64,000 bases of DNA from Bacteroidota bacterium (GTDB taxonomy: Bacteria; Bacteroidota; Bacteroidia; Cytophagales; Cyclobacteriaceae). The stretch lies in the NCBI GenBank assembly GCA_018267135.1, contig JAFDZA010000015.1, positions 29,402-93,401 on the forward strand, read 5' to 3'. Made by a program: the position numbers and the translations under genes. A model generated the notes under the pieces. That model saw only the letters and a program-made list of their open reading frames with translations. It was not told the DNA's origin and made no database searches. Positions 39,040 through 59,857 of the stretch are shown piece after piece; the first letter of the stretch is position 1; the number at the start of each line of letters is the position of its first letter.

Positions 39040-41028
39040 ATGAAAATCCACAATAAATTATTTTTACTCTTTGCGTATGCCCTGGCCTTGGCTATGCTCA
39101 ATGGTTGTAAGCCTAAAGGGCCGCAAGAAGCCATTACCGGAAACGCGGCTGAAAAAGTATATGTAGCTCCGGGTAAATACGATGAATTTTATAACATCGT
39201 ATCGGGTGGTTTCAATGGACAGATGTCTGTTTATGGCATTCCGTCTGGCCGGCTGTTCCGCATTATCCCGGTGTTCTCTCAGTTTCCTGAAAACGGATAC
39301 GGGTATAGTGAAGAAACTAAACCCATGCTCAACACGTCTCACGGCTATGTGCCTTGGGACGACCTCCACCACATCTCATTGTCGGTTACAAATGGAGAGC
39401 ACGATGGCCGGTGGGCTTTTGGCAATGCCAACAATACACCTCGTGTGGCCCGCGTAAACTTAAAAACGTTTAGAACGGAAGAAATCCTTGAGTTGCCCAA
39501 CAGTGGTGGTAATCACTCCTCTCCGTTTATTACCGAAAACAGCGAGTACATTGTAGCCGGTACCCGGTTTAGCGTGCCGCTTGGCGACAAGCGCGATGTG
39601 CCCATCACTTCTTATAAAGAGAATTTTAAAGGCACAATCAGTTTCATAAAAATTGATCCGCAAAGTGGTAAGATGAACATTGGTTTCCAGTTGAAAACCC
39701 CCGGTGTTGATTTCGACCTTTCGAGAGCCGGCAAAGGCCCATCTCACGGTTGGTTCTTTTTCTCTTGTTATAACACCGAGCGTGCCTATACTTTGTTGGA
39801 AGTGAACGCATCGCAGAAAGACAAAGACTTTATCTTAGCCGTAAACTGGAAGAAAGCAGAGGAATATGTGGCGCAAGGAAAAGCTACCAAATCGAAAGTA
39901 AAGTATGCTCATAACGTGTTAGATGAGAAAACGCATACAGCTACTTCTGAGATGCTGACCGAAGTGTTGCAATTAGATCCTACCATTTTAAAAGATATTG
40001 CTTATTTTATTCCTTGCCCTAAATCCCCGCACGGTTGCGATACCGACCCTTCGGGCGAGTACATTGTAGCCTCCGGCAAGTTGGCGGCATTAATCCCTGT
40101 CTTTTCATTTACCAAAATGCAAAAAGCAATTGCCGACAAAGACTTTGAAGGTGAATACGATGGTATTCCGGTAATTAAATATGAATCGGCTCTGTATGGG
40201 GAAGTAAAGAAACCCGGCTTAGGCCCGTTGCATACCGAGTTTGATAATAATGGAAATGCGTACACTTCTTTCTTTGTGTCGTCAGAAATTGTAAAATGGA
40301 ATGTTAAATCTCTTCAGGTATTAGACCGGGTTCCTACTTACTATTCCATTGGTCACTTAAGTGTGCCCGGAGGCCCCACCCGCAAGCCACATGGAAAGTA
40401 TGTGATCGCCTACAACAAAATTACGAAAGACAGGTACTTGCCTACCGGCCCCGAAATGACACAGTCAGCGCAACTCTATGATATCTCAGGAGATAAAATG
40501 CAATTGTTGCTCGATTTTCCCACCACCGGAGAACCGCACTATGCCGAAGCCATACCGGCCAGTTTAGTGATGCCGAACTCAACCAAAATTTATAAGATTG
40601 AAGAAAATAATCACCCATACGTAACGAAGGGCGAGAAGATGGCTAAAGTAGAGCGGAAAGGAAATGAAGTACACGTGTACATGACAGCCATTCGCTCGCA
40701 CTTAGTGCCTGATAATATTGAAGGAATTAAATTAGGTGATGTAGTGTACTTCCACGTTACCAACTTAGAGCAAGATTGGGATGTACCGCATGGGTTTGCT
40801 GTGAAAGGAGCATCGAACGCAGAGATATTGATTATGCCGGGCGAAACACAAACCTTGAAATGGGTGCCTGATGAAGTGGGCGTTTCCCCTTTCTATTGTA
40901 CCGATTTTTGTTCGGCATTACACCAGGAAATGCAAGGGTATGCCCGTGTATCAGCACCGGGGAGCAATGTACCGTTGAAGTTTTCCACCGGGGTGATTGC
41001 AGACGAATCCAAAAGCTCACCTAAGTAA
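39040..41028 (+). CDS. nosZ: Sec-dependent (clade II) nitrous-oxide reductase
   Basis: CuZ His motifs DLHH, GNHS, PHG, PLH, IGH, EPH; CuA HGF...CTDFCSALHQEM; lipoprotein-type leader (LNGC), no twin-arginine. Confidence 0.97.
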   Translation: MKIHNKLFLLFAYALALAMLNGCKPKGPQEAITGNAAEKVYVAPGKYDEFYNIVSGGFNGQMSVYGIPSGRLFRIIPVFSQFPENGYGYSEETKPMLNTSHGYVPWDDLHHISLSVTNGEHDGRWAFGNANNTPRVARVNLKTFRTEEILELPNSGGNHSSPFITENSEYIVAGTRFSVPLGDKRDVPITSYKENFKGTISFIKIDPQSGKMNIGFQLKTPGVDFDLSRAGKGPSHGWFFFSCYNTERAYTLLEVNASQKDKDFILAVNWKKAEEYVAQGKATKSKVKYAHNVLDEKTHTATSEMLTEVLQLDPTILKDIAYFIPCPKSPHGCDTDPSGEYIVASGKLAALIPVFSFTKMQKAIADKDFEGEYDGIPVIKYESALYGEVKKPGLGPLHTEFDNNGNAYTSFFVSSEIVKWNVKSLQVLDRVPTYYSIGHLSVPGGPTRKPHGKYVIAYNKITKDRYLPTGPEMTQSAQLYDISGDKMQLLLDFPTTGEPHYAEAIPASLVMPNSTKIYKIEENNHPYVTKGEKMAKVERKGNEVHVYMTAIRSHLVPDNIEGIKLGDVVYFHVTNLEQDWDVPHGFAVKGASNAEILIMPGETQTLKWVPDEVGVSPFYCTDFCSALHQEMQGYARVSAPGSNVPLKFSTGVIADESKSSPK

Positions 41029-45522: not shown

Positions 45523-45558
45523 AAAACAGACCGGGTAATTTATCCGGCCTGTTTTTTT
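45523..45558 (+). terminator. Terminator after the fasciclin gene
   Basis: Imperfect stem AAAACAGACCGG...CCGGCCTGTTTT followed by T run. Confidence 0.65.
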
Positions 45559-45572
45559 ATTTATGAGAACAT

Positions 45573-45604
45573 AAAAAATGCTGACGTTTCCATCAGCATT
45601 TTTT
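45573..45604 (-). terminator. Terminator after nrdJ (possibly bidirectional)
   Basis: Perfect 12-bp stem AAAAAATGCTGA/TCAGCATTTTTT with 8-nt loop. Confidence 0.75.
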
Positions 45605-45626: not shown

Positions 45627-47477
45627 TTACACAATGGCGCAAGCTCCACCCGCACAGGCGGCCTCTGCTTGCAAGTCGGTAGCATCATCGGGCTCATACA
45701 CCAAAGAAAGATCAATGTTCTTCAGTGATCTTTCCAGTTCTTCATAACGTTCTTCAGAGATATCTTCAAAGGGAGGCTGTTTATAGTTTCCACTATCAAA
45801 CGGAAGTACACTCAAACCATTATACGAGGCTTTGTTTTCCCACATCCATTCGCCTACTAATTCCCATTCGTGATTTTTAATGGATACCGTAGCCGAAACG
45901 TTGTTTGCATTATATCCTAATCGATATCCGCTGCGTACCCATTCCAGATTAAACGCTTTAATTCGTTCCAGCAAGTCCATTACACTTTCTGTGCGCAGGG
46001 TACTGCCCGAAGGTGCTTTTTGAGGGATGCAAACTATACCTTGCTTACTGTTCAAGAGATCATCTTCTATTAATTCGGGATGCCGGATTTTTAAATATTC
46101 GTATAGGGCTTCATTTTTCCCAATACGCATACGCCTTAAATAAAAATCGTTGTGCCAGGCGTGGATACCCGATGAAGTTCCTAACACGAGCGAGCTGGTG
46201 CCCGATGGTTTGATGGTAGTGCAGCGGGCTGCAAATTCAATATTAATTTTTTTCGAGATTACCGTGTTAATGTGCTTTACTTCGGCTGCGGCCTCCAGCA
46301 GATCTAATTTTGATACGCGGTTGCTGGCTATGCCTGTCATCCCCACGCCAATGAGTGCATCTTGCTCGGTGGTTTGTTTCCATACATCGCGCAGGTAGTG
46401 AAAATCAGTAAAGCCTGCTTGTAAGGTTCCGAGAAAACTGGCGGCACGTGCCCGCGCATTTAGTTCTTCCTGCGTTTCAACATCGGAAACATTTATTTCG
46501 CATAGATTGCAAAACTGAAACGGCCTAAGGGCTATTTCACAGCAGGGATTCGTGCCCCAGTCAATGTGGTTGCTGAAATAGAACCCCGGCTCTCCGGCAC
46601 CCGATAGTTCAATTTTTTTCCACAGGGATAAAAATTCTTCTTTGGTAGTGTGTTCCCTCGAAAGCACCGCTGAGTTATTGGCCCGGCCTCGTTGTTCGTT
46701 TAGTTCCCACCAGTTGCCAAACTTGCATGTAAGCATTTCTTCATCTCCCGGTGTGAATAACGAGATCATGGCAGATCTGCGTATGCCACCGGCCAGAACG
46801 GCATTGGCAATGTAGCACATGATGTCGTGGCACTCGAGGGGAGTAAGCCGTTCGCCATCTTTTTTTCGGTCTAACACGGCCACGAGGTGGGCGTGGCAAA
46901 CCTTTAACGGTTCGGGGCCGGGAGCTTTCCCTCCGGCCGTTACTAAACGGGCCCCTTTGGGGCGGACATCCGAATAATCAAAATCGGGGTGTGCATCGCT
47001 TTGGCCAAAGTTTGCTTTCATAATCATTTTGATGGAGTCGGCCCATCCTTCCAGGCTATCACCAATTAAAAAGCGTCTATGTTTAGTAGCCTTTTTTATG
47101 AGAGGAAGTTTGGCCACATGATGTTGCTGAACGGAAAAACCAACACCGGTACCTCCCAGTAACAAGAACATGGCTTCAGAAAATGCCCGGATGTCATCTA
47201 CCGGCATGTAGGCACAATTGTATATGCGGCTGTTGTTTTTTATGATGGGGGCTCCGGCAAATTGCATGGCACGCATGGAAGGGAGCACTTTTTTCTGATG
47301 AACAAATTGCATCACATCGTGTATCTCCTCGGTCATGTGTGGATATTTGGCCGCCATCATTGATTCGTAGCGGTCGCAGATTTCACTCCATAGCTCTCTG
47401 CGTTGTAATTCGGGTAGATAACGAGCGTATTTCATGTGGATGACAATGTCGCTCAGGATCTCTTGGTTTAGTTCCAT
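45627..47477 (-). CDS. nrdJ: Class II (adenosylcobalamin-dependent) ribonucleotide reductase, short monomeric type
   Basis: 616 aa; PSMRAMQFAG, YNCAY, active-site finger GTNPCCEI, TIKPSGT, C-terminal CAGGAC redox pair; no ATP cone seen. Confidence 0.9.
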   Translation of the reverse strand: MELNQEILSDIVIHMKYARYLPELQRRELWSEICDRYESMMAAKYPHMTEEIHDVMQFVHQKKVLPSMRAMQFAGAPIIKNNSRIYNCAYMPVDDIRAFSEAMFLLLGGTGVGFSVQQHHVAKLPLIKKATKHRRFLIGDSLEGWADSIKMIMKANFGQSDAHPDFDYSDVRPKGARLVTAGGKAPGPEPLKVCHAHLVAVLDRKKDGERLTPLECHDIMCYIANAVLAGGIRRSAMISLFTPGDEEMLTCKFGNWWELNEQRGRANNSAVLSREHTTKEEFLSLWKKIELSGAGEPGFYFSNHIDWGTNPCCEIALRPFQFCNLCEINVSDVETQEELNARARAASFLGTLQAGFTDFHYLRDVWKQTTEQDALIGVGMTGIASNRVSKLDLLEAAAEVKHINTVISKKINIEFAARCTTIKPSGTSSLVLGTSSGIHAWHNDFYLRRMRIGKNEALYEYLKIRHPELIEDDLLNSKQGIVCIPQKAPSGSTLRTESVMDLLERIKAFNLEWVRSGYRLGYNANNVSATVSIKNHEWELVGEWMWENKASYNGLSVLPFDSGNYKQPPFEDISEERYEELERSLKNIDLSLVYEPDDATDLQAEAACAGGACAIV

Positions 47478-47559
47478 GATGTAGTGGGTTTAGTTGAAGT
47501 TTAAAAAAATGATTACTCAGGTTGTTCATGTGCCGGGTATGAAAAGAGGTTATGTATAT

Positions 47560-49923
47560 CTATTCTGCTTCGGTTACGGAAATCACAGTTTTGGCACTTC
47601 TAACGAAGGCATGGCTTTGGCCATTTCCATTTACAGTAGTTTTCTGTGGTTTTAAATTTTTTCTACGCGAAAGAATAAACCAAGTAAGTGGAATAACGCC
47701 CCCCAGCACAAAAATGGACCCGCCTACAATGCGCATCCACGTAAGCGTTTGAAATGCCTGGCTGTCAATAAACTCACTGCTGCGGGCAAACCATAATCCT
47801 TTTTTTATTACCACGCTGATTTGTAATAACCCGGCTGGAAATAGATCGAGTAATACCATTAACAGCAAGCCGATGTTAATACTCCAAAAAGCTATTGTAA
47901 TTAATTTTGGATTCCACTTAGACGATGTAAACAGAAGTTGACAGCAAAACAGCACAGCGGCCAGCGACAAATTTCCATACACACCCATTAAGGCCGCATG
48001 GCCGTGGTTTACGGTTAAGTAGGTGCCGTGTTCATAGTAATTGGCAATCGGCAGGTTAATGATAAAACCTAACACACCGGCTCCAAAAAAATTCCAAAAA
48101 TTGACGGCTACCAAAAAAAGAAACACCTGCGGAAATCCAAACGATTGGAGAGAGGAGGAAGGAACATTACCACTTAGCTGCTTGGGTAATTTTCTAAACC
48201 GCCAGGCCTCCAGCGTTAATAAAATCAAAGGCACTACCTGTAACGTAGAAAATACCGAACCAAGTGCCATGGTGAAAACCGGCTTGGCATTCCAATAGAA
48301 ATTATGTGAAATGCCTAAGAGCCCCGATCCCAGAAAAAGAAGACAGGCAATATAGATTACTCGCGTGGCTGCCTGCACGCTGACTAAGCCCATCAGCACC
48401 ATAAAATATCCGATCAGCACGGTGGTAAATACTTCAAAGAAAGCTTCAGCCCACATATGGATCACCATCCACCGCCAGAAGTCGGCAATGACAAAGTTGG
48501 TTTGAGGATTAAATAAAAATCCGGATACTAATAATAACAAGATACAAGCTGTGGTGTACACCAGCCAGTTGGGCAATGCCCATGGTTGTTTAAGGCTGAT
48601 GACCGGCTTCAGGCCGCGATAGAGGATTATCACCCAGGTTAAAAACACACTATACAGAAGCACTTGCCAGATTTTACCAGGCTCAAGGTATTCCCACCCT
48701 TGGTGGCCCAACCAATACCACTTTTCACCGGCCAAACCTTTGGGGCCTATAAAAATTCCCACTAACCCACCGGCTACTAAAACAACGATCATAACAAACA
48801 GAGCATTTACCCATTTTACCTGATTTTTAGGCTGCGCCTGACAAAGCATAGGCATTACAAACAAAGAAGCTCCAATCCAACAGGCGGAGATCCACAACAA
48901 TGAAAGTTGCACATGCCAACTTCGGGTAATGGTTATAGGGAGGGGCTCGGATATGTTAAATCCAAAGAAATTAACAAAGCCTACGAAATCGTGTACAGTT
49001 AATATGCCTGCCAATACCTGAACTGAAAACAGAATGATTGCGGCAAAGAAAAATTTGTAAGTAGCCCGCTGCAGCTGGCTGGGCTGAAAGGAGGAAACAT
49101 CTTGCCGCGTCATAAGGGGTGCGGCATTTTTAGTAAAAGAGGAGTCATCCAGTTTTTCCAGTTTTCCGTGGTAATACAGCACCAGCCCCAGAACAAGAAC
49201 AAGACCCAATGATCCGATAATACTCCAGGTTATTACGGCTGTGCTGGGTGTGTTTCCGGCTGTGGGGTCATAAGGCCAATTGTGTGTGTAGCTGTAATCT
49301 TCACCGGGCCGTTCTACTCCGCACACCCAGCTCCCCCAAAAGAAAAATGCAGTAAGCGATCTTATTTCATCAGCTCCTTTCATATACCGGCCCGGCTTAC
49401 CCGAATTTTTCCCTTCTGCACTCAGGTATTCTTGCTGATAGTATTTCTCTAATTCTTTTCCTGCAAAAGATTGGGCATCGGTTAAAGTTACGGTATTGTT
49501 GCCCGATTGGTAAGTGTTTGATTTTATTTCACGCTTTACCATTTCAGCTATGCCGTAGCGTTGCAAGGTTTGGTCGCCTGCATCGGTAGCGATTGATTTC
49601 AGGTAATAGTCTTTCATGAAAAAGGTTACCTGGTGCAGGGCTTCAGCGGTGTAGTCTGGCCCCCGATTGGCGCCATCGCCAAACATAGAGCCATATTCCA
49701 TCAGCCCATATTTTTGAAATACCTGTTGCCCGCTCATGATGTCAGCCTGCGAGAACAAGGTAACTCCATCTGCACTTTTAAAATCAGGAATAGGGGGGGC
49801 TTCCGTATAGGTATGCAGGCCTATCTGGGTTACCCCCATCAGGCTGACTACAAAAATTACAGAGAGGGAGATCCACCAATTGCGCGGCTTCAATAAGGAA
49901 GCCACAAAATCTTGCTTTGCCAT
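47560..49923 (-). CDS. Quinol-type NO reductase family protein with NO-dismutase (Nod)-like substitutions
   Basis: qNor architecture (YGSMFGDG, RSWHVQL, HMWAEAFFE, HGH) but SHNFYW, STLQVVP and RIVGG replace canonical HH, LE and GD. Start ATG 49923 (TAAGTTTG promoter element covers the ORF-track TTG). Confidence 0.9.
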   Translation of the reverse strand: MAKQDFVASLLKPRNWWISLSVIFVVSLMGVTQIGLHTYTEAPPIPDFKSADGVTLFSQADIMSGQQVFQKYGLMEYGSMFGDGANRGPDYTAEALHQVTFFMKDYYLKSIATDAGDQTLQRYGIAEMVKREIKSNTYQSGNNTVTLTDAQSFAGKELEKYYQQEYLSAEGKNSGKPGRYMKGADEIRSLTAFFFWGSWVCGVERPGEDYSYTHNWPYDPTAGNTPSTAVITWSIIGSLGLVLVLGLVLYYHGKLEKLDDSSFTKNAAPLMTRQDVSSFQPSQLQRATYKFFFAAIILFSVQVLAGILTVHDFVGFVNFFGFNISEPLPITITRSWHVQLSLLWISACWIGASLFVMPMLCQAQPKNQVKWVNALFVMIVVLVAGGLVGIFIGPKGLAGEKWYWLGHQGWEYLEPGKIWQVLLYSVFLTWVIILYRGLKPVISLKQPWALPNWLVYTTACILLLLVSGFLFNPQTNFVIADFWRWMVIHMWAEAFFEVFTTVLIGYFMVLMGLVSVQAATRVIYIACLLFLGSGLLGISHNFYWNAKPVFTMALGSVFSTLQVVPLILLTLEAWRFRKLPKQLSGNVPSSSLQSFGFPQVFLFLVAVNFWNFFGAGVLGFIINLPIANYYEHGTYLTVNHGHAALMGVYGNLSLAAVLFCCQLLFTSSKWNPKLITIAFWSINIGLLLMVLLDLFPAGLLQISVVIKKGLWFARSSEFIDSQAFQTLTWMRIVGGSIFVLGGVIPLTWFILSRRKNLKPQKTTVNGNGQSHAFVRSAKTVISVTEAE

Positions 49924-49941
49924 TACTTTAATATTGTCTAA

Positions 49942-49973
49942 CAAACTTAATAAAAGATAAATTAGTCCTGTAC
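49942..49973 (-). promoter_or_regulatory. Bacteroidota -7 element (49942-49949) plus adjacent putative Rrf2 operator (49950-49973)
   Basis: Minus-strand TAAGTTTG; ATAAAAGATA-AATT-AGTCCTGTAC shares 17 identical bp (GACTAATTTATCTTTTA, reverse strand) with the 53403 site. Confidence 0.7.
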
Positions 49974-50004: not shown

Positions 50005-51015
50005 TTATTTCAGCCAGCCGTTTTGTTTATACCAGGCAGCTGTTTCGCGAATGGCATCCGCTAAATGGTAGCGAGGCTGAAGGCGGGTTTCTTCCCATAC
50101 GGGGCGGCTGTTGCAAGCCCAATTAACGGCCGAGATTTCAGTCAGTTTTTCAGAGTTGAGGAACCGTGTGTTCCCCGAGTGTGCCAGCCATTTTTCATGA
50201 GTCTTAACAATAGCCTGCAAAGGTTTTAAGGGTACTGAAAGTCGTATTGTTCTTTTGTTTAGAGCCGATCGGATGATGCCGTTCAATTCTTCGTTGGTGT
50301 AGTGCTGCCCGTCCGAAACCAGAAATGTTTGGTTGGCTGCCGGCTCTTTAAGCAAGGTAATGGCGATGTGCGAAAAATCTTTTACATAAATGAGAGAGAG
50401 TATTTGCCGGTGGCTCCCCAGGGTAATCTCAAATCCATGGTTAATCATTTTAAACAATCGTAAAAAATCTTTATCACGCGGGCCAAAAACAGCGGTAGGT
50501 TTTAGAATGGTAGTAGGAAAATATCCGGATGATTTCACAAATTCTTCTGCCATTTTTTTACTCCGGGCATAAGCCGATACCGGGCACTCGTCATCCGTTA
50601 CGTCAATCGGCTTAAGTGTAATAGGGCAGCCCGGCCCATACGTAGCCAGCGAACTGATCAGCATGAAGCGGGTAAGCGGCATGGCCGTGCGATGCAGGGC
50701 CTTCATCAGGTTTTTTGTGTACAGACAATTTACCTCATAAAATTCATTTGGATGATGAGCAGAAGTAATGCCTGCATTATGAATGACATAGTCGAAAGAA
50801 CCATGTTGGATTTGAAAATCGGAAAGGGCTTTCGTCAACTCATCGGGTGCGGAGAGGTTCAGTTCAAGTAACTGAATATTGTATAGATTTAAAAATTCTA
50901 AACGGCTTGATTTCCGGATGCCGGCATAAACCTCAAGCCCCTGCCGGATAGCTTCTTCCACTAAAAAACTACCTATAAAACCGCTGGCTCCTGTGATAAG
51001 GATTTTCCGGCTCAT
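50005..51015 (-). CDS. NAD-dependent epimerase/dehydratase (extended SDR); candidate ceramide/3-oxoceramide reductase
   Basis: GASGFIG, HNAG, SSLA, YARSK (YxxxK); ATGA-coupled to the GNAT gene in an operon with spt. Confidence 0.75.
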   Translation of the reverse strand: MSRKILITGASGFIGSFLVEEAIRQGLEVYAGIRKSSRLEFLNLYNIQLLELNLSAPDELTKALSDFQIQHGSFDYVIHNAGITSAHHPNEFYEVNCLYTKNLMKALHRTAMPLTRFMLISSLATYGPGCPITLKPIDVTDDECPVSAYARSKKMAEEFVKSSGYFPTTILKPTAVFGPRDKDFLRLFKMINHGFEITLGSHRQILSLIYVKDFSHIAITLLKEPAANQTFLVSDGQHYTNEELNGIIRSALNKRTIRLSVPLKPLQAIVKTHEKWLAHSGNTRFLNSEKLTEISAVNWACNSRPVWEETRLQPRYHLADAIRETAAWYKQNGWLK

Positions 51016-52136
51016 CGAATTGACTTAAAATAACACCGCCTGCGTTTGTGCTGTTCTGTTTCAAAGTAATCCCACATGGCTTGCACTTTTGTATTTTTTT
51101 CCAACTCGGGATTGGTTTCGGCATATTCTACTCCGTGTTTAATGCACGATTTGGTTAGTTCATCAATAAGAATGGCGTTAACGCCTTTCCCCTGTAGATC
51201 GGGCCGTATGGCTACGATATACAAATCAATAATATTATTTTTTCGCAAGGCTTTAAGCAAATGAAAAATGCCAAACGGAAAAAGTTGGCCATTGGCTTTT
51301 TGCAGGGCTTTTGATAGGGAGGGCATGGTAATGCCAAAGGCAGCTAATTTTCCGTCATGGTCAGTAATGAGCGATACAAAATCTGTTTTGATGAATGAAA
51401 AGTATTGCTGTGTATAGTAATCGATTTGCTTATCGGTTAAGGGCACTACCCCAAACAGATCGGCATAGGTAATATTAATTAGTTGAAAGACATCTTTTGC
51501 GTAGGGTAAAACATCTTTGGCTCTGCGTAATTTTACCACTTGCAACTGGCATCGTTTTTTTACCAATGAAGCAATACGCTCTAAGTTTTCGGGTGGTTGT
51601 TTAGGAAGATGAATCAGGTACTCTACCCAGTCGGCCTCTTTTTGGTAGCCCATTTCTTCCATGTATTTTGGGTAGTAGGGATGGTTATAAATGGTAGCCA
51701 GTGTACCTACCCGGTCATACCCCTCTACCAGCATACCTTCGTGGTCTAAGTCGGTAAACCCCATGGGGCCGTGCACGGCTTCCATATTCATTTCGCGTGC
51801 CCACGATTCTACTTTGGCTAACAGTTCTTCAGCTACACCCCGGTCATCTACAAAATCAAACCATCCAAACCGCAAGTAATTTTTTTTCCATTTTTCAATA
51901 AAAGCATGGTTTAAGATGCCTGCTATACGCCCGGCTACCCGGCCGTTTTTATAAGCAAGCCAATACCGGGCTTCACAATAGTCAAATGCCGGGTTTTTTT
52001 CTTTGCGCAATGTATTGAGTTCGTCAAACTGCAAAGGAGGTACGTAATAAGGATTTCCCTTATACAAGTGGTATGGAAAATTAACAAAGTCTTTAAGTTC
52101 TTTAGAGGATGATACTTCTTTTACCAGTAAACTCAT
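51012..52136 (-). CDS. YghO-like GNAT-fold protein; candidate bacterial ceramide synthase
   Basis: FVNFPYHLY...YVPPL, RFGWFDF, VHGPMGFTDLD, YNHPYY motifs; 8 bp downstream of spt. Confidence 0.7.
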   Translation of the reverse strand: MSLLVKEVSSSKELKDFVNFPYHLYKGNPYYVPPLQFDELNTLRKEKNPAFDYCEARYWLAYKNGRVAGRIAGILNHAFIEKWKKNYLRFGWFDFVDDRGVAEELLAKVESWAREMNMEAVHGPMGFTDLDHEGMLVEGYDRVGTLATIYNHPYYPKYMEEMGYQKEADWVEYLIHLPKQPPENLERIASLVKKRCQLQVVKLRRAKDVLPYAKDVFQLINITYADLFGVVPLTDKQIDYYTQQYFSFIKTDFVSLITDHDGKLAAFGITMPSLSKALQKANGQLFPFGIFHLLKALRKNNIIDLYIVAIRPDLQGKGVNAILIDELTKSCIKHGVEYAETNPELEKNTKVQAMWDYFETEQHKRRRCYFKSIR

Positions 52137-52144
52137 AGCTACGG

Positions 52145-53362
52145 TTAGATGATTTCCAGTTTTCGGGAGATGGAATAGATTTTTGAAAGAGCACGGTCTA
52201 TTTGCTCAAAAGTGTGCGTGGCCATCAAACTGAACCGGATCAACGAACTATCGGAAGGCACCCCGGGCGAGCAAACCGGATTTACGAAAACACCTTCATT
52301 TAGCAACCGGATGGCTAACTGAAAAGTTTTTAAATCATCGCGCACATAGATGGGTATAATGGGAGTACAAGAGTGGCCCAGATCAAACCCCATTTGTTTT
52401 AAATTTTGTAAAGCATAGTGGGTGTTATCCCACAAACGCTCGATGCGTTCCGGTTCTCGTTTTATAATGTTCAGGGCTGCCCGGGCACTGGCTGCGGCAG
52501 GGGGCGATATACTGGCGCTAAACATGAGCGACCGGGCATGATGTTTCAAAAAATTGATAACTGATTTATCGGCCGCAATAAACCCTCCGATGGAAGCCAA
52601 TGATTTGCTGAAGGTGCCCATGATTAGATCTGTCTTTCCGGTCAGGCCAAAATGCGAAGCTGTGCCGCGGCCGCCTTGCCCGATTACGCCCAGTGCATGG
52701 GCATCGTCTACCATGATGTTTGCCCCGTACTGCTCGGCCAGCTTTGCTATTTCCGGCAGATTGGCAATATCGCCATCCATGCTGAAAATCCCATCCACTA
52801 CGATCAATTTAATTCGATCGTCATCGTGCGATTGCAAAATTTTTTCGAGCGAAGCCATGTCGTTATGCTTAAACTTCAGCGTTTTACTGAAACTCAGACG
52901 GCTCCCTTCAATAATGGATGCATGGTCTAACTCATCCAGAATTAAACAATCGTGGCGGTTCAGTAGTGCGGGAATCACCCCAATGTTTACCTGAAAGCCC
53001 GTGCTAAAAACTAAAGCAGCCTCTTTACCCACAAACTCGGCCAGTTGCTCCTCCAAATCAAGATGAATGTCTAAAGTACCGTTTAAAAAGCGTGAGCCGG
53101 CACAGCCTGTGCCATATAGACGAACCGCTTCATTGGCAGCCCACTTTACTTCCGGATGGTTGGTAAGCCCCAAATAACTGTTAGAACCGAACATAAGAAC
53201 CGGTTTTCCGTCAATCATCACTTCCGTGTCCTGATCCGACTCAATCACCCGAAAATAGGGGTAAAGCCCAAGCCGTTTCAGATTATCGGGCAAATCAAAA
53301 TCGGTGGCTCGCTGCACCAGCCGGTTCTTCCGGGTAGCCGGGCTTTTCAATAAAGTGTTCAT
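52145..53362 (-). CDS. spt: Serine palmitoyltransferase (alpha-oxoamine synthase family)
   Basis: GLYPYFRVIESDQDTEV, MFGSNSYLGLT, DHASII, DDAH, PLP lysine in GTFSKS; N-terminus resembles Bacteroidota SPT rather than BioF. Confidence 0.8.
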   Translation of the reverse strand: MNTLLKSPATRKNRLVQRATDFDLPDNLKRLGLYPYFRVIESDQDTEVMIDGKPVLMFGSNSYLGLTNHPEVKWAANEAVRLYGTGCAGSRFLNGTLDIHLDLEEQLAEFVGKEAALVFSTGFQVNIGVIPALLNRHDCLILDELDHASIIEGSRLSFSKTLKFKHNDMASLEKILQSHDDDRIKLIVVDGIFSMDGDIANLPEIAKLAEQYGANIMVDDAHALGVIGQGGRGTASHFGLTGKTDLIMGTFSKSLASIGGFIAADKSVINFLKHHARSLMFSASISPPAAASARAALNIIKREPERIERLWDNTHYALQNLKQMGFDLGHSCTPIIPIYVRDDLKTFQLAIRLLNEGVFVNPVCSPGVPSDSSLIRFSLMATHTFEQIDRALSKIYSISRKLEII

Positions 53363-53390: not shown

Positions 53391-53426
53391 CAAAAATAAA
53401 TAATAAAAGACTAATTTATCTTTTAA
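53391..53426. promoter_or_regulatory. Divergent promoter: spt -7 element (53391-53398, minus) and putative Rrf2 operator (53403-53426)
   Basis: Minus-strand TATTTTTG; palindrome ATAAAAGACT-AATT-TATCTTTTAA. Confidence 0.7.
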
Positions 53427-53480
53427 ATATTAGAATTTAATTTGCACCTGAATTAGGCTTAATTTTTTAGGCAGGATAGT

Positions 53481-55663: not shown

Positions 55664-56128
55664 TCATCTTATCATCCCTTTCATGTTTCCAAGTTTGTAG
55701 TTTTTTAAATAGGTTTTCCCTTTTACAAACTCGTCTCTCAATTCCTGAATTGTCTTTTTAAGCAGAATATCGCGCAACCGGGTTTTGCTTTCTTTTACTT
55801 GCCAATGTACCGGGCACGGAAAGGTATCGGAACACTCCTTTAATCCTAACACACAAGATTTTAATATATCGGTGCCATCAATGGCTTTCACGATAGAATT
55901 CAGCATAATAGGTTTGGCTTTGGGTTTGACATAAAAGCCGCCATTGGGACCTTTTGAGGAAGAGATAATTTTCTCGCGTACCAGAGTTTGAAGAATTTTG
56001 GCAGTAAACGATTGGGGCGAATCAGCCTCTCTCGCAATTTCTTTTACACTTAGCTTGGCACCATCGGCACTGCGTATAACAATGTATAATACTGCCCGAA
56101 TAGCATACTCGCATGCTCTTGAAAACAT
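55664..56128 (-). CDS. Rrf2-family transcriptional regulator (three Cys)
   Basis: MFSRACEYAIRA, SSKGPNGGF, CVLGLKECSDTFPCPVH. Start moved to ATG 56128. Confidence 0.92.
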   Translation of the reverse strand: MFSRACEYAIRAVLYIVIRSADGAKLSVKEIAREADSPQSFTAKILQTLVREKIISSSKGPNGGFYVKPKAKPIMLNSIVKAIDGTDILKSCVLGLKECSDTFPCPVHWQVKESKTRLRDILLKKTIQELRDEFVKGKTYLKNYKLGNMKGMIR

Positions 56129-56207
56129 AGACCGTTGGATTAAGAATAGATGGGTTCTCCCCGAAAGATAAAAATAACTTCCAAGAATATTCCCATACCG
56201 CAAAAGG

Positions 56208-58034: not shown

Positions 58035-58073
58035 CAAAGATACAATAAAAGATAATTTTATCCTTTATTTTTG
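58035..58073. promoter_or_regulatory. Divergent promoter pair flanking a putative Rrf2 operator (58045-58068)
   Basis: Minus -7 TATCTTTG (58035-58042), plus -7 TATTTTTG (58066-58073), palindrome ATAAAAGATA-ATTT-TATCCTTTAT. Confidence 0.72.
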
Positions 58074-58834: not shown

Positions 58835-58881
58835 ATAAAAGTATGTAAATACTTTTATTAAAGACAATCGCTGTATATTTG
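58835..58881 (+). promoter_or_regulatory. Perfect palindromic putative Rrf2 operator (58835-58858) and -7 element (58874-58881) of the ric operon
   Basis: ATAAAAGTAT-GTAA-ATACTTTTAT (perfect 10-4-10); TATATTTG. Confidence 0.78.
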
Positions 58882-58900: not shown

Positions 58901-59857
58901 ATGAATACCGCACAAGAAAATATTCTGAATGTAACCTTGCTGGAGCCCCGGATGAAGCATCCTACTATTTTCGCCTATTTCGACCGGCTAAACGGAAGCG
59001 AAACCCTAACCATTTTAAACGACCACGACCCCAAACCGTTGTATTATCAATTACTGGGTGAGAGGGGAAATATATTTAGCTGGGAATATGCCGAGCAGGG
59101 CCCCGAACAATGGCGTGTGCGAATTAGCAAACATAAAACAGGTGGCTCCGAAGAAACCCTGGGCCAATTGGCTACACACGATTTGCGCAAAGCGCAGGTT
59201 TTTAAAAAATACGGACTCGATTTTTGCTGCGGTGGAAAGAAAACTGTAAAACAAGCCTGTGCTGAAAAAGGCATTGATGTATCGGTAGTAGAAACCGAAC
59301 TGCAGCAAGCCGAACGGCAGGCAGCTCCCTCCACGCGTCCACTGGCTTACCATGAATGGAAGTTAGATTTTTTAGCCGACTACATCGTGCAGGTGCACCA
59401 TAGTTACATCAAAAAAAATTTACCTATTATTATAGACTTAACGCATAAAGTAATGGCACGACACGGCCATGCGCACACTGAGTTAGGCCGGGTGCATGAG
59501 TTGGTAGAAGCAATACGAGCCGAATTGCTTGAACATCTGCAAAAGGAAGAACAAATTATCTTCCCATTTATTAAGTCGCTCGCTTTGGCCTCCGGCTCTT
59601 CTAAGGAATTTTCGGCTCCGGCCGGTACGGTGCACACCCCGGTAAAGACGATGGAAAAAGAACATGAAAGGATAGGAAAATATTTAGAAGAGCTTCGTGC
59701 AGCAACTGATCAATACACCGCTCCGGCTGATGCTTGTGCTTCGTACAATATGCTGTATCGCTTGTTGGCAGAGTTTGAAGAAGATATGTTACAGCACATT
59801 CATCTGGAAAACAATATTCTTTTTCCTAAAGCGATAGAGATGGAGCAGACTGTTTAA
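58901..59857 (+). CDS. ric: Iron-sulfur cluster repair di-iron protein (Ric/YtfE/ScdA) with extra N-terminal DUF2249 domain
   Basis: NDHDPKPL (DUF2249), GLDFCCGG (ScdA_N), hemerythrin-like HH...H..KEE..FP...HIHLENNILFP. Confidence 0.92.
   Translation: MNTAQENILNVTLLEPRMKHPTIFAYFDRLNGSETLTILNDHDPKPLYYQLLGERGNIFSWEYAEQGPEQWRVRISKHKTGGSEETLGQLATHDLRKAQVFKKYGLDFCCGGKKTVKQACAEKGIDVSVVETELQQAERQAAPSTRPLAYHEWKLDFLADYIVQVHHSYIKKNLPIIIDLTHKVMARHGHAHTELGRVHELVEAIRAELLEHLQKEEQIIFPFIKSLALASGSSKEFSAPAGTVHTPVKTMEKEHERIGKYLEELRAATDQYTAPADACASYNMLYRLLAEFEEDMLQHIHLENNILFPKAIEMEQTV

Follow-up and report, generated by a model that had tools for sequence, protein, structure and literature searches.

Nitric oxide (NO)- or hypoxia-linked class II ribonucleotide reductases (RNRs) and Rrf2 genes beside nod in Bacteroidota are already known. 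Pseudomonas aeruginosa activates nrdJ through Dnr (PMC4860495), and nrdZ of Mycobacterium tuberculosis lies within the NO/hypoxia DosRS regulon (PMC12713380). In the NsrR regulons of Proteobacteria and Firmicutes, a self-regulating iron-sulfur (Fe-S) Rrf2 protein controls hmp, ytfE (ric), norB and other nor-type targets. It acts through an AT-rich palindrome with AAGA(T/C) outer arms that lies over the core promoter. The nod genes of Bacteroidota have adjoining Rrf2 genes, and detoxification has been proposed for them (bioRxiv 10.1101/2023.11.21.568154). Here we analyze a 64,000-nucleotide stretch (the window, to which positions refer unless a contig or locus is named) of contig JAFDZA010000015.1, assembly GCA_018267135.1, from a member of the order Cytophagales. 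In it, a gene for a Nod-like protein of the qNOR family (nod) is followed by a gene (nrdJ) whose product, P0001, is a predicted class II RNR.

Like P. aeruginosa nrdJ (Anr/Dnr) and M. tuberculosis nrdZ (DosRS), the gene described here encodes a class II RNR that stands beside an O2-dependent class I enzyme and is apparently subject to regulators of the NO and/or hypoxia type. Those two systems have dimeric NrdJ/NrdZ enzymes with their own promoters, whereas the enzyme here is of the monomeric RTPR type and is operonic with ric or a Nod-like gene, behind an Rrf2-type operator (in a group of relatives that we call clade A) or a Crp/Fnr box (clade B). The likeness to the NsrR regulons extends to the Fe-S Rrf2 protein, its autoregulation, its ric and nor-type targets, and the form and placement of the palindrome; the palindrome here is shorter (6-6-6), however, and the regulator is not an NsrR equivalog. 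Our literature search found no description of an RNR as an NsrR-type target, nor of nrdJ together with ytfE. It likewise found no description of a monomeric RTPR-type subfamily as an accessory member of an NO-stress island, of the near-constant RNR-ric operon, of its two alternative operators, or of the nod-nrdJ fusion seen here.

We favor, with moderate confidence, the reading that nod and nrdJ share one transcript, repressed by Rrf2 and derepressed by NO, from which an NO-consuming enzyme is made along with an RNR independent of O2 and of any stored radical. The two genes would form one transcription unit, reading from a single promoter upstream of nod to the hairpins that follow nrdJ. An Fe-S Rrf2 repressor of the NsrR kind would hold the promoter shut by binding the palindrome that abuts the -7 box, and NO, or a signal that damages the cluster, would free it. 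The derepressed cell would then make the Nod-like, NO-consuming heme enzyme and the monomeric adenosylcobalamin RNR together. Having no need of O2 or of a stored tyrosyl radical, the latter would sustain deoxynucleotide (dNTP) synthesis once the housekeeping class Ia enzyme NrdAB had been disabled, either by NO quenching of its radical or by a lack of O2 to regenerate it. What the sequences show is the anatomy of the locus, the catalytic residues and fold of the RNR, where the operator occurs, and a conserved linkage to ric and to regulators. Which protein represses the unit, that NO is its signal, that transcripts cross the gap and that the enzyme is active are what we infer here.

The sole recognizable operator and -7 box of the unit lie upstream of nod, and nrdJ has no operator of its own here. 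The operator (49948-49970) follows the consensus AAAGAC-N6-GTCTTT, continues into TATTA, and abuts the -7 box TAAGTTTG (49949-49942) with a two-base overlap. Since TTG 49944 falls inside this promoter element, the true start of nod is most likely ATG 49923 rather than the TTG. A search with the consensus alone was too unspecific and was dropped in favor of a position weight matrix, built from sites upstream of nod and ric in relatives and scanned over the whole 3.41-Mb genome (6.8 million positions). The operator at the nod promoter received the highest score of all positions (31.5 bits). The five top matches of the genome all lie in the window, before nod, before the NorCB-like and serine palmitoyltransferase (SPT) genes, and before an operon that encodes a 609-aa protein and then an Rrf2 protein. 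Because the operator at 58043-58070 thus sits on its own operon, this Rrf2 protein is the obvious candidate for the repressor. NsrR-type regulons are marked by an Fe-S-binding Rrf2 repressor with a palindromic operator over the promoters of NO-detoxification genes and of its own operon. The arrangement here agrees with this, with a Cys3-His motif in the Rrf2 protein and top-scoring operator sites at nod, at the NorCB-like genes and at the operon that encodes the regulator; relatives carry the operator ahead of ric, nod, nrdJ and the 609-aa/Rrf2 operon.

Features of the nod-nrdJ locus and its candidate regulon in the window.
Feature	Position	Strand	Description
nrdJ-like gene (P0001)	45627..47477	minus	616-aa monomeric RTPR-type class II (adenosylcobalamin) ribonucleotide reductase (predicted)
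nod-nrdJ intergenic gap	47478..47559	minus	82 bp; final ~35 nt are an A/T- then C/A-rich leader, kept before nrdJ in relatives
Nod-like qNOR-family gene	47560..49923	minus	~787 aa counted from ATG 49923; reading frame open up to TTG 49944
Two terminator hairpins 3' of nrdJ	45523..45602	minus	bidirectional; common to the convergent fasciclin gene
nod-nrdJ promoter	49942..49970	minus	palindromic operator and exact Bacteroidetes -7 box TAAGTTTG
Second operator pair	53401..53428		29.0 and 24.9 bits; between divergent SPT-GNAT-SDR genes and cytochrome c/NorCB-like genes
Third operator pair	58043..58070		28.9 and 25.4 bits; between 609-aa/Rrf2 operon and HlyIII
Rrf2-family regulator	55664..56203	minus	PF02082 and TIGR00738 match; C-x6-C-x5-C-x2-H cluster motif; candidate operator binder
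DUF2249-RIC (YtfE/ScdA-type di-iron protein)	58901..59857	plus	TIGR03652 233.7 bits vs 204.7 cut-off; 11 kb away, behind variant operator

We collected 80 genome loci that encode this RNR, clustered their neighbors, and counted regulator boxes at the operon heads of 81 operons. In 51 loci, the gene directly before the RNR was ric (ytfE/scdA), separated from it by a short gap; the RIC protein combines ScdA_N and hemerythrin domains and scores above the TIGR03652 cut-off. The RNR tree showed two well-supported clades of 40 rows each. In clade A, the Rrf2-type operator stood at the operon head in 32 loci, six of them directly before nrdJ; in clade B, a Crp/Fnr-like box, ATGAY-N4-RTCAT, did so in 34 loci. 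Over all loci, a gene for a Crp/Fnr regulator lay 3' of the RNR in ~29; in clade B, where such a regulator follows nrdJ, the Crp protein has no FNR-type Cys cluster. Cultured carriers include Ohtaekwangia kribbensis CCUG 58938 (L077, with the order ric-nrdJ-crp) and Imperialibacter sp. EC-SDR9 (L040, where nrdJ has the operator immediately in front of it). Other recurrent neighbors were Rrf2, the 609-aa protein, a NadA paralogue, a beta-eliminating lyase, a truncated globin and a nos cluster. One or the other box headed 66 of the 81 operons, and the fifteen loci with neither included many on truncated contigs. With ric as the usual partner and Rrf2 or Crp regulators alongside, these counts strongly back membership of the RNR in an NO-type regulon, as judged from gene order and operator sites. 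Because NO-stress genes accompany it nearly always in relatives, the RNR probably substitutes for the usual enzyme, which is sensitive to NO.

A Nod-like sequence, by comparison, occurred within 8 kb of the RNR in 13 of the 80 loci, two of these being N-terminal fragments only. The reverse test used 80 metagenome loci encoding Nod-like proteins, with Rrf2 nearby in 51 and RIC nearby in 17; an RNR was found near Nod in 5 of the 52 loci that had enough downstream sequence. These two counts rule out Nod as the conserved partner of the RNR, a place that belongs to ric. The sequence-only reading had inferred an NO-inducible backup coupled directly to NO removal. The association with NO-stress genes as a group stands, but coupling to Nod itself does not hold up as a conserved feature, and the direct nod-nrdJ link is lineage-specific. 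Such adjacency occurs in a minority of loci, which counts against our model, and requires at least three changes on the RNR tree. A RIC search in five related genomes returned sub-threshold matches only. One metagenome contig (L173:2575-11461) carries Rrf2 and, in a string, nod-like, RIC, a true RTPR (680 aa, 28% identical to P0001 and above the TIGR02505 cut-off), a 488-aa protein and an Fnr-like regulator; by its gene order, the contig represents the same module assembled independently from another RTPR lineage. In two other loci (L016 and L018), short genes of ~109 aa (cluster 77) match the N-terminal ~90-140 residues of the Nod-like protein and lie behind the operator, upstream of ric and nrdJ; these may be remnants or a stand-alone N-terminal domain.

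Both genes are accessory. Of 201 genomes sampled from the order, three contained the RNR and only this one contained a close Nod-like homologue. A housekeeping role for the RNR is excluded by its rarity, and its repeated location among NO-stress genes is therefore meaningful rather than an accident of housekeeping gene order. The genome (100% complete by marker genes, 3.41 Mb) has a second RNR, encoded by nrdB-nrdA (nrdB first; L001, L178) on contig C26:52713-55919, with no cobalamin riboswitch near these genes. NrdA is class I, and NrdB is a eukaryote-type class Ia subunit that matches mouse R2 (E=1.9e-148). The tyrosyl radical of mouse R2 is the textbook example of a radical quenched by NO. 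As this other RNR is of the O2-dependent, tyrosyl-radical class Ia and no class III NrdD was found in the genome, the class II enzyme is the sole O2-independent RNR. The genome also encodes NosZ (39040-41028, with NosL/D/F/Y), the Nod-like qNOR and a NorCB-like enzyme, and neither NirK nor NirS was found in it. A denitrifier context was ruled out by the absence of these nitrite reductases, and its gene content makes the organism an N2O and NO consumer that does not carry out full denitrification.

Several observations weigh against our model, beginning with the regulator. The Rrf2 protein scored 29.3 bits against the NsrR cut-off of 182 and passed the superfamily model alone, and its Cys3-His pattern is IscR-like; it could therefore report Fe-S status or O2 and not NO. 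The class II nrdZ of Sphingopyxis granuli rises 70-365-fold in anaerobic nitrate respiration and at most 3-fold with an NO donor. The cofactor raises a further difficulty. Binding of NO to cob(II)alamin is very rapid, and NO also inhibits the adenosylcobalamin-dependent methylmalonyl-CoA mutase. Cobalamin is further inactivated by N2O, and a B12-dependent RNR is for these reasons not obviously NO-proof. CbiC was not found in the genome, which implies that there is no de novo B12 synthesis and that the backup RNR relies on outside or scavenged cobalamin. B12 salvage genes are present; the genome encodes a PduO adenosyltransferase and three B12-domain proteins, and its one cobalamin riboswitch precedes a reading frame on contig C2. 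This equipment lends indirect support to the predicted adenosylcobalamin-dependent ribonucleotide reduction by P0001. The backup role envisaged by the sequence-only reading is nevertheless in keeping with a genome that has class Ia NrdAB, no class III enzyme and genes for B12 salvage.

The first of these points bear on the explanation that competes best, that the RNR serves purely as a reserve for anaerobic or microoxic conditions, under regulators that report low O2 or Fe-S status rather than NO. In that case nrdJ would sit among N-oxide genes since all of them are needed once O2 is exhausted. Class II enzymes are the classic O2-independent backups, the IscR-like motif and the Sphingopyxis response fit such a role, and in P. 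aeruginosa the O2 sensor Anr sits above Dnr (PMC4860495). Yet the conserved partner of the RNR is ric, and the operator otherwise serves Nod-like, NorCB-like and NO-related genes. In addition, the clade-B Crp regulator has no FNR-type Cys cluster, and the lack of NirK and NirS argues against a respiratory denitrification program. We therefore regard regulation by low O2 or Fe-S status alone as unlikely, though it is the main rival and deserves to be taken seriously.

The NO-responsive model also requires that nod and nrdJ be transcribed together. The sequence-only reading had placed nrdJ 82 bp after the Nod-like stop on the same strand, had seen no obvious terminator and no room for a cobalamin riboswitch between them, and had noted a strong hairpin after nrdJ; all of this was borne out. 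The two reading frames (47560-49944 and 45627-47477) are on the minus strand at that spacing. The RNA of the gap folds at -13.6 kcal/mol, no better than shuffled sequences (z = +0.37), and a scan of the gap found no terminator-like or sigma-70-like site. Rfam searches of the gap, covering cobalamin riboswitches and other RNA elements, found no family, and their sub-threshold small-RNA matches fell on the downstream terminator. There, two hairpins (~45575-45602 and 45523-45555), the first followed by a U-run, fold at -40.1 kcal/mol against -17.2 +/- 3.2 for shuffled sequences (z = -7.1). With no promoter or terminator in the gap and the sole operator and -7 box upstream of nod, co-transcription is the simplest reading of the sequence.

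It could be argued that the adjacency is incidental, and that a constitutive or separately regulated promoter, lying between the two genes or within nod near its 3' end, drives nrdJ without co-expression of nod. The order of neighbors around nrdJ is fluid. Bacteroidetes promoters are poorly modeled, and nrdJ may have a non-canonical promoter or a weak one in the final part of nod. The ~35-nt leader before the nrdJ ATG, conserved in all clade-A loci, might be taken for such a promoter. However, the leader is the same whether ric, nod or a promoter lies upstream, and where nrdJ has its own operator (L007 and L009) it lies downstream of the -7 box; it thus behaves as a 5' untranslated region and not as a promoter. 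No Bacteroidetes -7 box (TAnnTTTG) occurs within 330 nt upstream of the nrdJ ATG; a single one-mismatch match falls inside nod, against a background of ~8.7 per kb per strand. Given also that the regulator box is so regularly found at the operon head, we consider an incidental adjacency quite improbable.

The sequence-only reading had identified the nrdJ product as a class II RNR, and closer comparison upheld this, with the type specified as RTPR and every catalytic residue present. P0001 matches the RTPR of Lactobacillus leichmannii (PDB 1l1l) from N- to C-terminus (E=1.7e-32), at 21% identity, and is ~120 residues shorter. Its score against TIGR02505 (RTPR; 255.8 bits, cut-off 340.05) marks a divergent, compact subfamily. 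The AlphaFold model (pLDDT 91.6) has 1l1l as its top Foldseek match (E=8e-36, TMq 0.80, against ~0.5 for dimeric NrdJ) and shows the fold of RTPR, with its insertion in place of a dimer interface; PF21995 matches at 24.7 bits, slightly short of the cut-off of 27. The thiyl loop N310-P-C312-C-E314 aligns to N406/C408/E410 of RTPR, the redox pair C88/C323 to C119/C419, and the C-terminal C608-x4-C613 to C731/C736. None of these seven residues (C88, N310, C312, E314, C323, C608 and C613) varies among 37 relatives that are 41-88% identical. Fold, loop residues, C-terminal C-x4-C and a Cys pair 11 residues apart place P0001 far closer to RTPR than to dimeric NrdJ. It differs from the L. leichmannii enzyme in its loop sequence (NPCCEI vs NPCGE), in falling below the curated family cut-off, and in being an accessory gene of an NO-stress island in Cytophagales.

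More than 8000 homologues of P0001 were scored, with 2197 cluster representatives at 50% identity (E<=1e-30), and most of those named by NCBI are called 'hypothetical protein'. Many representatives (P0125-P0260) are 750-1600 aa long, their match being broken at residues 309-314, the catalytic Cys. Such insertions are consistent with inteins at the active site, the classic intein site of real RNRs. That P0001 might be a neofunctionalized RNR-fold enzyme that is not a ribonucleotide reductase would accord with its score below the RTPR cut-off, its shorter length and the NCBI names of its relatives, but is very improbable given the invariant catalytic and redox Cys, Asn/Glu pair and C-terminal CxxxxC, the end-to-end fold match to 1l1l, and the intein-sized insertions exactly at the catalytic Cys, as in real RNRs. 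From alignment and model together, we conclude that P0001 is a genuine compact monomeric class II RNR.

The label 'Nod-like' for the upstream gene stands in part. The protein matches PF22085 and PF00115 and aligns with Geobacillus stearothermophilus qNOR (3ayf; E=1.4e-155), whose numbering we use. It shares with the putative Nods of 'Ca. Methylomirabilis oxyfera', HdN1 and Muricauda the qNOR scaffold, replacement of the FeB ligand His560 by Asn (motif SHNFYW), and a damaged quinol site (E332G and D746G). It differs from them in retaining His328, Phe336, Glu512 and Glu516; H508 and H559 are also kept. Loss of the quinol site in Nod concerns His328, Glu332, Phe336 and Asp746, of which His328 and Phe336 remain here. 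A further mark of Nod is a Glu-to-Gln change at the catalytic site (PMC3413370); both Glu512 and Glu516 are retained here. Compared with the descriptions in PMC3413370 and PMC10286720, the Nod signature of this sequence is partial. The pattern of changed and kept residues recurs in every Nod-like relative of ~54-90% identity that covers those positions, and the canonical qNORs of the same order keep HEFD...HH. The Rrf2 neighbor suggests that the Nod-like protein serves detoxification rather than O2 supply.

The tight and widely kept pairing of ric with nrdJ admits a more speculative interpretation, to which we give little credence. It may be a direct partnership, in which the di-iron RIC would shield the cobalamin cofactor of the RNR from NO or restore its activity, whether by stripping NO off cob(II)alamin, by local NO consumption or in some other way. 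If so, the subfamily would amount to an NO-tolerant B12 radical enzyme system, beyond two co-regulated stress genes.

Further genes are associated with these operators. In clade-A loci, a second quinolinate synthase (NadA, a 4Fe-4S enzyme), a tryptophanase-like beta-eliminating lyase and a PTPS/QueD-like gene recur behind the same operator and may replace or help NO-sensitive enzymes. In the window, genes for serine palmitoyltransferase (NF047600, above cut-off), a GNAT-like protein and an SDR (50005-53362, minus strand) run toward nod and share the divergent operator region 53401-53428 with the NorCB-like genes, which may place sphingolipid-type genes in the regulon. The sixth-best operator match of the genome (24.8 bits; contig C4:54827-54849) stands 86 nt before a gene for a caspase-domain (Peptidase_C14) protein. 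The genome has a single copy of a variant palindrome, AAAGTA-N6-TACTTT (58838-58855), directly upstream of the DUF2249-RIC operon. This variant is also found before DUF2249-RIC in two related loci (L013 and L029), and a second Rrf2 paralogue may use it as its operator.

These results offer a function and a regulatory context for a large family whose members are publicly mostly hypothetical proteins. They define a candidate operator of the Rrf2 type, another of the Crp/Fnr type, and a regulon open to direct study in relatives that have been cultured. We predict that the NO- and N2O-consuming Cytophagales of soil and sludge turn to a B12 enzyme for their dNTPs when nitrosative stress sets in, a shift that would tie the DNA replication of N2O-reducing bacteria to external cobalamin.

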